Source: Candidatus Levyibacteriota bacterium
GTDB taxonomy: Bacteria > Patescibacteriota > Microgenomatia > Levybacterales > UBA12049
DNA: 64,000 nt
NCBI GenBank assembly: GCA_016186625.1
Contig: JACPLG010000008.1
Location: 80,689 to 144,688 of the forward strand
Direction of reading: 5' to 3'
Position 1 is the first letter of the stretch. Each line of letters begins with the position of its first letter. Both the position numbers and the translations under genes were made by a program. Positions 39,393-64,000 of this stretch are shown here, one piece after another. The notes below the pieces were generated by a model. The model saw only the letters and a program-made list of their open reading frames with translations, searched no databases and was not told the origin of the DNA.

Positions 39393-39467
39393 GGTGGATG
39401 TAGCTCAGTGGTAGAGCTCCTGGTTGTGGTCCAGGTGGCCGCGGGTTCGATCCCCGTCATCCACCCA
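39393..39467 (+). tRNA. tRNA-His (anticodon GTG) with G(-1)
   Basis: gGTGGATGTAGCTCAGTGGTAGAGCTCCTGGTTGTGGTCCAGGTGGCCGCGGGTTCGATCCCCGTCATCCACCCA. Confidence 0.8.
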
Positions 39468-39898
39468 TTCGACTCACTTCGTTCGCTCATGGCTGTAAGC
39501 CGGAGTCGAATGTCCTGAGTTCATCGAAGGACAAAATGTCTTTTTTCATTTACATTCTCCGTAGCTCATCCAATCAACTATATATTGGACAAACGAATAA
39601 TTTTGAAAATCGGACAAAGCAACATATTGCAAAAGATTGTAAAGCAGCGAAATTTACTAAAGATCATGAAGACTTCAAGCCCGTTTATAAAGAGGAGTAC
39701 CCTACAAGATTAGAAGCAATGAGAAGAGAAGCACAGATTAAAAAATGGTCAAGAGCAAAAAAAGAAGCGCTTATTGCAGGAAATTTGAAAGAACTTAAAA
39801 ATTTAAGCAAAAAGAAATAGTAAGTGAGATCATCGAGCCTGAGCCTGAGGTTCACTTCAGAGTCGAAGACCTGTCGAACCATCCCCGTCATCCACCCA
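39468..39898 (+). mobile_element. Minimal tRNA-integrated cassette: GIY-YIG nuclease gene bounded by a 16-bp direct repeat of the tRNA-His 3' end and ATTCGAC.../...GTCGAACC termini
   Basis: CCCCGTCATCCACCCA at 39453-39468 and again at 39883-39898; left end ATTCGACTCACTTCGTTCGCTCA, right end GAGTCGAAGACCTGTCGAACCAT. Confidence 0.55.
39536..39820 (+). CDS. GIY-YIG nuclease-domain protein (UPF0213/YhbQ-like)
   Basis: FFIYILRSSSNQLYIGQTNNFENRTKQH matches the GIY-YIG core. Confidence 0.7.
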   Translation: MSFFIYILRSSSNQLYIGQTNNFENRTKQHIAKDCKAAKFTKDHEDFKPVYKEEYPTRLEAMRREAQIKKWSRAKKEALIAGNLKELKNLSKKK

Positions 39899-61757: not shown

Positions 61758-62698
61758 ATTAACACTGAAAAAAGGAAAATTAACTCGGAAATTACCAAGA
61801 TTATTCTTGAAAAAATTGAGACAGCCCCGGCATCTTGGACACTTAAGATTTGAGATAACCCTAAAGTCACAACAAGTTCCCTTACCCCAAGACCCATCGG
61901 GGTTATAAAACTAAGATACCCTATTAAAAGAGAAAATACAAAAAAAGAACCAAGTATTAAAAAAAGATTAAGTCCAAGTGAAAAAATTGAGATAAAAATA
62001 AAATAATTACCTGTCCCAAAAATAAAATATGTTAAAACCGAAAATAGTATAAGTTTGATTTTCGATTTTCCGCTGAATCCCGGAAGAAGGTAGTTTGATA
62101 CTCGTTTTGTAGCTGAATATTTTTTATTATAGATTATGCCTGTTACTATGAAGAAGATAAAAGTCGCAATAAGTACTAGCGGTAAAAGGGATATTAGTTT
62201 TGTTTGCAATGTCCCCGGGTTAAGAAACCACGGAATCGAAAATATTGAAACAATACCGCAGCCTATTATGACAAGCTGAATATCCGCAATAATTGAAACG
62301 CCGAGAGTTTTTTTATCAATTCCAAGAGCGCTAAATTGCTCCGCACGGCCTAAAAATGACCAGATGTTGCCGGGCGTATACCTTTTTAACTCCGAAAAAG
62401 AAAATCTATATGTGTTTTCTCTAAAATTTATTTTATATCCAAGTTCGGCAAGTTCCAGCTGCCAGAGAAAGCTTCGCATAAGAAAATAAATAAAAAATGC
62501 AAAAATTCCCAGGATTAGATAGAGGAGACTTATATTGCCAAGATTTATGTTAAGCTCGGTACTTTTATCGGCAATAAGTTTGAGAATAAATAAAATTGAA
62601 ACAAATGAGATCGGCCAACCGATTAAAAACTTCCCCCAGGAAATTAGTTGATTTTTGTTTACGCCCACCAAGTTTATTATATATTTTTTATGGAGCAA
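61730..62698 (-). CDS. Flippase-like/lysylphosphatidylglycerol-synthase-TM-family membrane protein (UPF0104)
   Basis: YTPGNIWSFLGRAEQ motif; 8 TM segments. Confidence 0.45.
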   Translation of the reverse strand: MLHKKYIINLVGVNKNQLISWGKFLIGWPISFVSILFILKLIADKSTELNINLGNISLLYLILGIFAFFIYFLMRSFLWQLELAELGYKINFRENTYRFSFSELKRYTPGNIWSFLGRAEQFSALGIDKKTLGVSIIADIQLVIIGCGIVSIFSIPWFLNPGTLQTKLISLLPLVLIATFIFFIVTGIIYNKKYSATKRVSNYLLPGFSGKSKIKLILFSVLTYFIFGTGNYFIFISIFSLGLNLFLILGSFFVFSLLIGYLSFITPMGLGVRELVVTLGLSQILSVQDAGAVSIFSRIILVISELIFLFSVLIWEKSYRKI

Positions 62699-62713
62699 TT
62701 GTAGGCCTCCGGC

Positions 62714-63295
62714 CTAGAGAGCCTGTTGTACGGTGGGAGTTGGGGTAAAAGTTGGGGTTGGAGACGACTGGGCCCCACTATATACAAAATTTCTCGTGAG
62801 TGTTTTTTGAGCGTTACCCACAACGCTTTTTACCCTTAGATCAAATTTAATATTTCCGTTTGGAAGATTATAAAGAGCGATTGATCTGTCATCATATGAA
62901 GACCAAGTGCCATTGCTTATTCGATAAGACCAAACAACTGCGCAATAATCTCCGGCAATATAATCTATATCAACCATCACTGGATTATCCGATACGTTTT
63001 CATTTTCATCAGGATTTGAAATTGAAATATCACCGATTCCGCTTTTGCACGCCTCTTTAGTTACAATGATTTCTTTTTCGTTTGGCGCAGCCTGTGTGAT
63101 AACAATAGTTTCATTTTTAGCGTTATCCTTTTCACTGCCCTTACTGCCTGTTAAATTGTTTAGATTTAGAATAATAACGGTTAAAAGAACTGGAATAGTA
63201 AGAAGAGCAGTGAAAAATTCAATGTGCGGTTTTTTGGTATGAAACTCCTTAATTGATCTCTTTAATCTCGTCCAGCTATGCTTAATGCCTTCCAT
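62714..63295 (-). CDS. Membrane-anchored hypothetical protein with PT-linker
   Basis: TM, then SPTPTFTPTPT tail. Confidence 0.35.
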   Translation of the reverse strand: MEGIKHSWTRLKRSIKEFHTKKPHIEFFTALLTIPVLLTVIILNLNNLTGSKGSEKDNAKNETIVITQAAPNEKEIIVTKEACKSGIGDISISNPDENENVSDNPVMVDIDYIAGDYCAVVWSYRISNGTWSSYDDRSIALYNLPNGNIKFDLRVKSVVGNAQKTLTRNFVYSGAQSSPTPTFTPTPTVQQAL

Positions 63296-63357
63296 GTGAT
63301 AAAAAATGACCCCTCCGAGCCATTATCATTGTATCAGATTGATCCATTTTTGCAAAT

Positions 63358-63390
63358 TTGTTGAGGATTATGAGGCTATCTGATAAAATG
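63358..63390 (+). promoter_or_regulatory. Candidate promoter TTGTTG-N17-TGATAAAAT driving the tRNA-Arg locus
   Basis: ttgttgaggattatgaggctatctgataaaat; the tRNA fragment starts ~8 nt downstream. Confidence 0.4.
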
Positions 63391-63396
63391 AATGCG

Positions 63397-63438
63397 TGCA
63401 CCCGTAGCTCAATGGATAGAGCACATCGCTTCGGATCA
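63397..63438 (+). pseudogene. tRNA-Arg(TCG) 5'-fragment (acceptor + D-arm + anticodon loop CTTCGGA, no T-arm)
   Basis: GCACCCGTAGCTCAATGGATAGAGCACATCGCTTCGGATCAC; no matching 3' half downstream. Confidence 0.4.
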
Positions 63439-63478
63439 CAAATTGATTTCAAAGCACAAATAACTTATAATTTGAGCT

Positions 63479-63916
63479 ATGAAGAGATGTAGTAGGTGTA
63501 AAAAAGAAAAGTCTATTGAAGATTTTAATTTTAAAAATAGAGCTAAGCAGACTCGGCAATATCAGTGCAAAGATTGCAGCCGAATATATATAAGGTCACA
63601 TTATGAAAGAAACAAGAAGTACTATCTTTTAAAAGCAAAGCTCAGAAATGAAGCAAACAGAAAGGAAATCAAAGCATATATATGGAATTTTCTCAATAGT
63701 AATCCATGCGTAGACTGTGGGGAGAAAGATCCGATAGTTTTAGAATTCGATCACTTATCGGACAAGATAGCAGATATCTCCGCAATGTACAGAAATTATA
63801 ATTTGCAAAAAGTTAAAAGTGAAATTGAAAAGTGTCAGGTCAGATGCGCAAATTGTCATAGAAGAAAAACGGCAAATGAGCAGGGATGGAATAAAAATTT
63901 TGCCTCTGTAGCTTAA
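63479..63916 (+). CDS. HNH endonuclease with N-terminal CxxC...CxxC zinc finger
   Basis: CVDCGEKDPIVLEFDHLSDK...CQVRCANCHRRKT (HNH). The 3' end overlaps the tRNA-Arg 5' end by ~15 nt. Confidence 0.7.
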   Translation: MKRCSRCKKEKSIEDFNFKNRAKQTRQYQCKDCSRIYIRSHYERNKKYYLLKAKLRNEANRKEIKAYIWNFLNSNPCVDCGEKDPIVLEFDHLSDKIADISAMYRNYNLQKVKSEIEKCQVRCANCHRRKTANEQGWNKNFASVA

Positions 63917-63973
63917 CGGATAAAGCGCTGGTCTTCGGAACCAGTAATGCGGGTTCGATTCCTGCCAGGGGCG
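63902..63973 (+). tRNA. tRNA-Arg (anticodon TCG)
   Basis: GCCTCTGTAGCTTAACGGATAAAGCGCTGGTCTTCGGAACCAGTAATGCGGGTTCGATTCCTGCCAGGGGCG. Confidence 0.75.
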
Positions 63974-64000
63974 CAACGTATTGCTGCAAGGTAGCACGTT

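Follow-up and report, generated by a model that had tools for sequence, protein, structure and literature searches.

Organization of the locus

The DNA analysed here (the window) is a stretch of 64,000 nucleotides (nt) from contig JACPLG010000008.1 of Candidatus Levyibacteriota bacterium (assembly GCA_016186625.1). Near its end, from position 63361 to 63974, a gene for a small HNH nuclease lies between the 5' half of a transfer RNA (tRNA) gene for arginine, tRNA-Arg(UCG), and a complete tRNA-Arg(TCG) gene. Coordinates follow the window numbering, all features of this segment are on the + strand, and the loci of relatives are labelled L001, L002 and so on up to L098.

The locus opens with a promoter, P1 (63361-63389, +), which a promoter scan identified as TTGAGG-N17-TAAAAT with a TG extension. 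The first-pass annotation, made from the letters alone, had also placed a promoter here, but its -35 element, TTGTTG, lies 3 nt upstream of TTGAGG and would imply a spacer of 20 nt. After a spacer of 8 nt comes the 5' half of tRNA-Arg(UCG), positions 1-38 of the molecule (63398-63435, +), recognized from its sequence and by comparison with the relative L093 and referred to below as the stump, a pseudogene. It reads GCACCCG-TA-GCTC-AATGGATA-GAGC-A-CATCG-CTTCGGA, and thus contains the 5' strand of the acceptor stem, the whole D-arm, the 5' strand of the anticodon stem and the anticodon loop. These are the parts first described for it; the likeness to a tRNA ends after A38, and the length is 38 nt instead of the 42 nt given at first. 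The anticodon loop is also the first copy in a junction motif, CTTCGGA-N12-TTCAAAG (63429-63454, +), whose second copy overlaps the -35 element of a second promoter, P2 (63443-63471, +; TTGATT-N17-TATAAT), a near-consensus promoter found in the same kind of scan with 10 of 12 positions matching. Because P2 stops 7 nt ahead of the ATG, the messenger RNA (mRNA) of the nuclease gene is probably leaderless.

The nuclease is encoded by an open reading frame (ORF) of 145 amino acids (aa) with a zinc ribbon and an HNH (beta-beta-alpha-Me) domain (63479-63916, +). It runs directly into the intact tRNA-Arg(TCG) (63902-63974, +), which was detected by ARAGORN and scores 67.4 bits against the Rfam tRNA model. 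The overlap is 15 nt, the final five codons with the TAA stop corresponding to positions 1-15 of the tRNA, and the transcript from P2 is predicted to continue from the nuclease gene into it. The stump and the intact tRNA have the loop CTTCGGA in common and differ at 11 of 38 positions, in agreement with the first description of a downstream tRNA-Arg of different sequence; P2 and the overlap between ORF and tRNA are features that it did not include. The gap between stump and ORF is only 43 nt, and the interval of about 470 bp from the stump to the intact tRNA contains one ORF and no integrase gene.

A tRNA half that breaks off in the anticodon loop could be the 5' exon of an intron-containing tRNA-Arg, with the HNH gene inside a group I intron, or one piece of a split tRNA joined in trans. 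In Patescibacteria the anticodon loops of tRNAs often contain group I introns, some of which carry HNH genes (PMC13011429). Permissive Rfam scans of positions 62600-64000 and of L001, a near-identical Logan contig that reaches 389 nt past the window end, nevertheless return the intact tRNA only, and neither a group I or II intron nor any other RNA family. No matching 3' half (T-arm plus CGGGTGC) occurs in the 64-kb window or in those 389 nt, and within the window there is no separately encoded 3' half with complementary acceptor and anticodon-stem strands. There is also no space for a ribozyme core, since the gap between stump and ORF is only 43 nt and a complete tRNA begins before the ORF has ended. 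Moreover, the published survey saw insertions at nearly all anticodon-loop positions except 37/38 (PMC13011429), and in L085 the stump is decaying. An exon or a split half is thus hardly credible, as the first-pass annotation had already concluded for an intron from the missing 3' partner.

A relative without the nuclease gene

Contigs of relatives were fetched by means of the protein encoded upstream of the locus (193 aa, 100% identical to NCBI HYW63_03315). In two Levybacteria loci, L093 and L094, this neighbour is 80% identical and is followed by a P1-type promoter and an intact tRNA-Arg(TCG) that directly abuts a tRNA-Lys(CTT); no HNH or GIY-YIG homologue is present in the locus. The nuclease gene is therefore polymorphic in presence at the same locus among relatives, and a comparison proposed from the outset, that of tRNA-Arg(TCG) loci in related genomes, yields the same promoter with an uninterrupted tRNA. 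The promoter reads cTTGAGTccaacaagcctatcaggTATAAT in L093/L094, cTTGAGTccaacgaggctatctggTAAAAT in L082 and GAGGCTATCTGATAAAAT in the window, and L082, L089 and the HNH-free L093 all retain the block GGCTATCTGRTAAAAT. P1 is, as far as its sequence tells, the original promoter of the resident tRNA-Arg gene.

The stump is identical to the 5' half of the L093 tRNA-Arg at 34 of 38 positions, and to the window's own intact tRNA at only 27 of 38. The intact tRNA in turn matches L093 over the same span at 29 of 38 positions, and its best matches, at 64 of 73, are to other HNH-linked tRNAs. This pattern of identity indicates that P1 and the stump are the remains of the original tRNA-Arg gene, and that the functional tRNA is another copy, linked to the nuclease. 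With 35 of 38 positions shared also with the tRNA-Arg of L029, the stump is no chance match to an unrelated degenerate tRNA. The layout of the window recurs in L082, L083 and L084, where the linked tRNA is identical and the stumps are slightly different; the intact tRNA is also identical in L001, L082 and L083. The relatives L095-L098 are uninformative, with broken synteny and no tRNA nearby. A metagenome scan for the orthologous locus gave one contig, which ends inside the stump, as do Logan contigs of the window's own strain.

In L093 a gene for a 520-aa serine recombinase with Resolvase and Recombinase domains (257-1819, +) overlaps the 3' end of the tRNA-Lys(CTT) (1755-1830, -), which suggests an integrated element at tRNA-Lys.

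Integrative elements are well known to leave partial copies of tRNA genes (PMC9897764), and with a large serine recombinase gene overlapping the neighbouring tRNA-Lys in L093, one may ask whether the stump is an attachment (att) site duplication left by an integrase-mediated island or prophage at the tRNA gene. The segment from stump to tRNA, at about 470 bp and without an integrase, does not look like such an element. The two copies are 27/38 identical and not an exact repeat, and the displaced piece is the promoter-bearing 5' half. Integrative elements normally rebuild the tRNA from the host promoter and 5' part and displace a 3' fragment, so that the usual picture is an exact 3' repeat. We consider an att duplication extremely unlikely.

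The HNH protein and its family

The 145-aa protein matches PHROG 2255 'HNH endonuclease' over residues 1-139 (E=1e-35), with further matches to PHROGs 3106 and 4234 (HNH endonuclease) and 1035 (endonuclease VII). Searches of Pfam, NCBIfam and PDB sequences gave nothing significant for it, and PF01844 is touched, weakly, by only five of 40 relatives. An AlphaFold model built with 40 homologues as input has a confidence score (pLDDT) of 92, and the protein has the beta-beta-alpha-metal fold of the HNH superfamily. Among these 40 homologues an N-terminal CxxC...CxxC, C77xxC80, D91-H92 and C123-x-N125-C126-H127 are invariant, the individual invariant residues being C77, D79, C80, D91, H92, C119, C123, N125, C126 and H127. 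The sequence thus carries the HNH signature, with a catalytic His preceded by Asp/His, an Asn/His metal ligand and paired CxxC zinc ligands, and bears out the initial description of a zinc-finger HNH nuclease.

The family is large. A word-indexed search returned more than 3,500 relatives, mostly from Patescibacteria, and a profile search of 1.84 billion representatives at 50% identity returned 33,471 matches at E<=1e-3 and 13,502 at E<=1e-10, among which tandem or fused doubles are frequent. Members are found in Patescibacteria, Chloroflexota, Actinomycetota, Acidobacteriota, Planctomycetota, Dependentiae and phages, a patchy spread across phyla that is typical of mobile nuclease genes. In comparisons with L082 and L083, the closest relatives at 92% and 86% aa identity, the ratio of nonsynonymous to synonymous substitution rates (dN/dS) is 0.11-0.18, and the HNH gene is thus under purifying selection. 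No partner genes are conserved around it in the loci of relatives.

Other copies are arranged differently. Tandem HNH genes adjoin tRNAs in L019, L069 and L081, and many database proteins hold two to four copies of the domain per chain. In L028 (3001-3432), also from Patescibacteria, an intact tRNA-Arg(TCG) lies upstream together with a TTGATTCCGAAG...TATTAT promoter block, and a frameshift or stop interrupts the HNH gene after residue 103, which marks it as a degenerating copy.

Linkage of the family to tRNA genes

In order to describe the surroundings of the family, we took 80 loci from species-representative genomes and counted as linked any same-strand tRNA that starts between -30 and +80 nt of the stop codon. 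A tRNA lies at the 3' end of the HNH gene in 65 of the 80 loci: 49 are Arg-TCG, nine Gly-TCC (the Solirubrobacterales), four Trp-CCA and three others. The background density in the same loci is 0.19 tRNA per kb, so that adjacency would be expected by chance in fewer than one locus of 80. No tRNA is found on either side in three loci, and two run off the contig. In 48 of the 65 linked loci the stop codon lies inside the tRNA, usually as the universal U8-A9-G10 read as TAG, or as TAA in the D-loop. Homologues consequently end in ...PL or ...(A/S)PVA, these residues being translated tRNA. The nuclease and its downstream tRNA are a fixed unit across hundreds of genomes.

Phage homologues number 237 GenBank records, with 31-45% identity over the full length. 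In seven of the eight records inspected the HNH gene begins about 50 nt past one tRNA and extends as far as, or into, the following tRNA of the same strand. The flanking pairs (upstream, downstream) are tRNA-Pro and tRNA-Pro in JimJam, tRNA-Met and tRNA-Met in Jada, tRNA-Pro and tRNA-Trp in ArcherS7, tRNA-Lys and tRNA-Phe in Mildred21, tRNA-Pro and tRNA-Phe in Francesca, and tRNA-Cys and tRNA-Leu in Wc4-1; in PaoP5 the upstream tRNA is tRNA-Arg and none is directly adjacent downstream. The exception is Sebata, where the end of the ORF overlaps a tRNA-Asn on the opposite strand. Among contigs from IMG/VR, a tRNA on the same strand is the direct neighbour in 52 of 80 loci.

We considered whether having the same tRNA on both sides might be a hallmark of the family. 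Flanks of the same isotype occur in nine of 25 phage loci against 1.8 in shuffles, but ordinary neighbouring tRNAs of the same arrays reach 26%, and the idea was dropped. In JimJam and Jada the two flanking tRNAs are very different in sequence. A further arrangement occurs in Actinomycetota, among Solirubrobacterales and relatives (L040, L052, L053, L060, L062, L063, L067, L072, L074 and L075), with the HNH gene between a divergent tRNA-Pro(GGG) gene and a tRNA-Gly(TCC) gene and a conserved GAACGTCTGTTCG about 20 nt ahead of the start codon, in place of the TTCGRA pair described below; in L075 the tRNA-Gly is upstream of the HNH gene.

Strong conservation of this kind could also mean that the protein has been domesticated, as a factor tied to the expression of tRNA-Arg(UCG) or to tRNA-targeting conflicts (for instance anti-phage or anti-defence), with the stump a historical accident. 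The low dN/dS, the very widely conserved overlap of ORF and tRNA, and the gene's own conserved promoter with a motif resembling the anticodon loop would all suit such a role, and the T4 nuclease SegB, encoded in a phage tRNA cluster, benefits its phage by amplifying tRNA genes (PMC13096335). A host factor would not be expected, on the other hand, to have a patchy distribution and an HNH-free syntenic relative, to occur in tandem, fused and frameshifted copies (L019, L028, L069, L081 and many two-domain representatives), or to be spread over unrelated phyla and phages with no conserved partner genes. Domestication therefore appears improbable to us.

Stump decay and the recurrent junction

Between the window and L082 the stump has four changes in 38 positions and the intact tRNA none in 59 (Fisher p=0.02), so the stump is not under tRNA-like constraint. 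In L085, with an HNH protein 73% identical, the stump has a deletion of 7 nt and many substitutions. Whole 5' halves that end at about position 38-43 stand upstream of the ORF in the window, L082, L083, L006, L011, L038 and L055, each with a lineage-specific sequence, and partly deleted stumps are found in L012, L014, L035, L046 and L076.

The pattern (C/A)TTCG(G/A)A-N11-13-T(T/C)CGA(A/G) is kept in 20 of the 33 tRNA-Arg-linked loci scored (22 regular-expression matches, of which two were judged spurious), against a chance rate of 0.006 per 90 nt, and many Patescibacteria loci keep CTTCGGA-N12-TTCGAAG although the remainder of the stump has decayed. Of the two heptamers, the first corresponds to the anticodon loop of tRNA-Arg(UCG). 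The second, which is the (near) reverse complement of that loop, overlaps the -35 region and ends 22-26 nt before the start codon, and a TAtAAT box follows. The order -35, TTCGAAG, -10 is conserved across Patescibacteria loci, the P2 stretch is identical at 31 of 31 positions in L082, and TTCGRA reaches a density of 13.5 per kb upstream of the ORF against 0.9 per kb in the flanks. A hairpin of the two heptamers with a 7-bp stem was tested and rejected: 138 of 154 positions pair, but shuffling of partners equals this in 597 of 2000 trials, and there is no covariation. As TTCGAA is palindromic, the heptamers could equally be two direct protein-binding sites. Planctomycetota loci L038 and L055 have another spacer, without the P2/TTCGAAG block, and the stump still breaks in the anticodon arm, at about position 43, which argues for a mechanistic preference for this arm over random deletion.

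These stumps could have another history, in which an ancestral tRNA-HNH-tRNA arrangement arose by tandem duplication, the upstream copy lost its 3' half once, and the junction was then inherited with no cutting or homing at all. Phage loci and some bacterial loci do show a full tRNA, some 35-50 nt, the HNH gene and a second tRNA; isoacceptors are often neighbours anyway (26% of adjacent pairs); and the near-identity of CTTCGGA-N12-TTCGAAG across many Patescibacteria is what shared descent predicts. An old pseudogene, however, should be decayed everywhere, and intact-looking, lineage-specific halves persist in the window clade, L006, L011 and L038/L055. The Planctomycetota spacer without the P2/TTCGAAG block, with its break still in the anticodon arm, fits poorly as well, and so does the stump of the window, which is contiguous with the resident promoter and matches the gene of an HNH-free relative. 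On this evidence a duplication followed by decay is an unlikely origin, though it is the chief alternative to homing.

Three sets of contigs from independent short-read assemblies have their ends at this place: L089 and L090-L092 end, and L001 starts, inside the stump. Such loci are probably under-represented in metagenome bins, because the repeated half-tRNA seems to fragment assemblies.

A proposed homing-type cassette in a tRNA gene

We favour, with a probability of about 0.7, the reading that the resident tRNA-Arg(UCG) gene has been occupied by a free-standing homing-type HNH cassette that travels with a tRNA copy. The first-pass annotation had offered an HNH element that disrupted the resident tRNA and supplied a replacement, or homing with partial duplication, and the HNH-free syntenic loci L093/L094 support this. 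The gene is free-standing, having its own promoter and start codon and no ribozyme.

The ancestral state would be that of L093, with P1, tRNA-Arg(UCG) and tRNA-Lys(CUU) in this order. The putative cassette would consist of P2, the leaderless 145-aa HNH gene and the abutting tRNA-Arg(UCG) of a different sequence type, of which perhaps just the 5' two-thirds came in with the nuclease, and would have become joined to the resident gene directly after the anticodon loop, at position 38. P1 and the resident 5' half would then persist as a non-functional stump, with function provided by the cassette-linked tRNA. For its spread we infer the following cleavage specificity, direction of change (gain rather than loss) and repair pathway. 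In tRNA-Arg(UCG) genes that lack the HNH gene, the nuclease would cut or nick the anticodon arm or its vicinity; the left side of the break, with tRNA positions 1-38, would pair with the stump of the donor locus, and the right side with the donor's intact tRNA or the sequence downstream; repair would then fill the break with a copy of P2, the HNH gene and the tRNA. In this way the duplicated tRNA half would serve as a portable homology arm, and an essential tRNA gene could be occupied without an intron. In each event the recipient's own 5' half would become the new stump, giving lineage-specific, fresh-looking stumps beside a conserved junction.

Several observations weigh against this scheme or leave room beside it. 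L093 may have lost the HNH gene secondarily, if the stump recombined with the 5' half of the linked tRNA and the gene between them was deleted; the front half of its tRNA-Arg is like the stump and the rear part like the linked tRNA (30/33), as either gain or loss would predict, and the identity of the linked tRNA to L093 is not significantly different between this rear part (30/33) and the 5' half (29/38; p=0.12). The cleavage target site is a guess from the end point of the stump, and the common CTTCGGA-N12 junction could be one ancient, vertically inherited event instead of repeated homing. The stump has fewer changes than synonymous sites (4/38 against 18/77, P=0.04, on small numbers), and there may be some constraint on it, or gene conversion. 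Two further tests of whether the cassette supplies a piece of the tRNA came out negative: G-U or mismatched acceptor-stem pairs are not enriched in HNH-linked tRNAs (22 of 67, against 41 of 122 for other tRNAs; p=1.0), and flanks of the same isotype in phages, at 36%, do not differ significantly from the 26% of ordinary neighbours (p=0.34). Although the linked tRNA differs from the resident type, neither the comparison of its two parts with L093 nor that of acceptor stems gave a signal of flanking markers having been co-converted with the nuclease gene. The architecture is also not uniform, since 10 of the 80 loci from species-representative genomes have an intact tRNA 0-110 nt upstream instead of downstream.

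A more specific form of the cassette reading seems possible to us, though on the whole doubtful. Here the nuclease would recognize the DNA of the tRNA-Arg(UCG) anticodon arm and carry a replacement tRNA or 5' part, the stump would act as a homology arm in any genome, and expression would be held back by two brakes. One brake could be the two TTCGRA promoter sites 12 nt apart, acting as the nuclease's own operator. The other would follow from the stop codon inside the tRNA: processing by RNase P would leave a non-stop mRNA, and its product would be destroyed via transfer-messenger RNA (tmRNA).

Comparison with known systems

Homing nucleases normally need an intron or intein inside essential genes, or sit harmlessly between genes. 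Mitochondrial free-standing homing ORFs, such as that of Allomyces atp6, bring with them a copy of part of the host gene, and the resident counterpart is displaced and becomes a pseudogene; these ORFs are perhaps the best conceptual parallel to the cassette proposed above. In both cases a replacement piece of the target travels with the nuclease and the displaced piece stays next door; in the mitochondrial case, however, the target is protein-coding and its 3' end is duplicated, whereas in the window the target is a tRNA and the promoter-bearing 5' half is displaced.

The closest characterized system is SegB of phage T4, a free-standing GIY-YIG homing endonuclease in a tRNA cluster that recognizes a conserved motif of tRNA genes, the T-psi-C stem-loop, and drives the inheritance of itself and neighbouring tRNA genes, with SegB-lacking relatives known (PMC2330249). 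Recent work shows that SegB amplifies tRNA segments and that homologues of it co-localize significantly with tRNAs (PMC13096335). Both nuclease genes stand between tRNA genes and outside introns. SegB is, however, a GIY-YIG enzyme on a phage, while the gene described here encodes an HNH protein on a bacterial chromosome; no truncated copy of the target has been reported for SegB; and the window ORF is fused to the 5' end of one particular tRNA, with the break at the anticodon loop.

In the tRNA arrays of mycobacteria and phages, HNH genes are reported as the most widespread coding sequences and have been implicated in changes of the tRNA repertoire (PMC5966550). The HNH genes in the arrays of actinophages and of mycobacterial plasmids and chromosomes belong to the same protein family (31-45% identity for the phage records) and have the same position, starting some 50 nt past a tRNA and reaching the following one or ending within it. 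They differ in being part of multi-tRNA arrays of mobile replicons, flanked by whole tRNAs. The window gene is found on the chromosome of a Patescibacterium with a small genome, at a single tRNA-Arg locus, where half of a tRNA gene remains as a stump and the junction at the anticodon loop is conserved.

The group I introns described in the survey of tRNA introns in Patescibacteria interrupt the anticodon loops of other tRNAs, and some contain Pfam-HNH genes; the arrangement of the window is not described there (PMC13011429). Phylum, anticodon-loop target and HNH type of nuclease are shared with these introns. The window locus, in contrast, has neither ribozyme nor 3' exon, its protein has no significant match to PF01844, and function is kept by a second complete tRNA and not by splicing.

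Other nuclease genes nearby

The window contains a second small nuclease gene adjoining a tRNA gene, an ORF of 94 aa (39536-39820, +) with a GIY-YIG domain (Pfam PF01541, E=2.2e-19), 70 nt downstream of tRNA-His(GTG) (39394-39466). Past the window end, L001 holds a 93-aa GIY-YIG ORF (639-920; PF01541, E=2e-11) between the tRNA-Arg(TCG) and the start of a further tRNA, which agrees at its 5' end with the tRNA-Lys(CTT) of L002 and L093. The tRNA-Arg and tRNA-Lys genes abut in L093 and are 9 nt apart in L002 and 48 nt apart in L085. Given this spacing, the same tRNA pair seems to have received the GIY-YIG gene of L001 by a second insertion, independent of the first.

Implications

That selfish nucleases live among tRNA genes and drag them along is an established principle. 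We did not find described in the literature the chromosomal, single-locus form of Patescibacteria with its near-exclusive tie to tRNA-Arg(UCG), nor a half-gene stump with a conserved anticodon-loop junction and a stop codon inside the tRNA. The locus suggests a third route into tRNA genes, in which the element brings a spare copy or half of its target and leaves the resident half behind. If true, this would explain why small HNH genes, thousands of them across Patescibacteria and further phyla, are welded to the 5' end of tRNA-Arg(UCG), why half-gene stumps adjoin them and why metagenome assemblies break at such loci. The underlying HNH family is large and barely annotated, and the window protein would be a compact nuclease of 145 aa with a predictable natural target. 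For organisms with minimal tRNA sets, such cassettes would flag a source of tRNA gene replacement.

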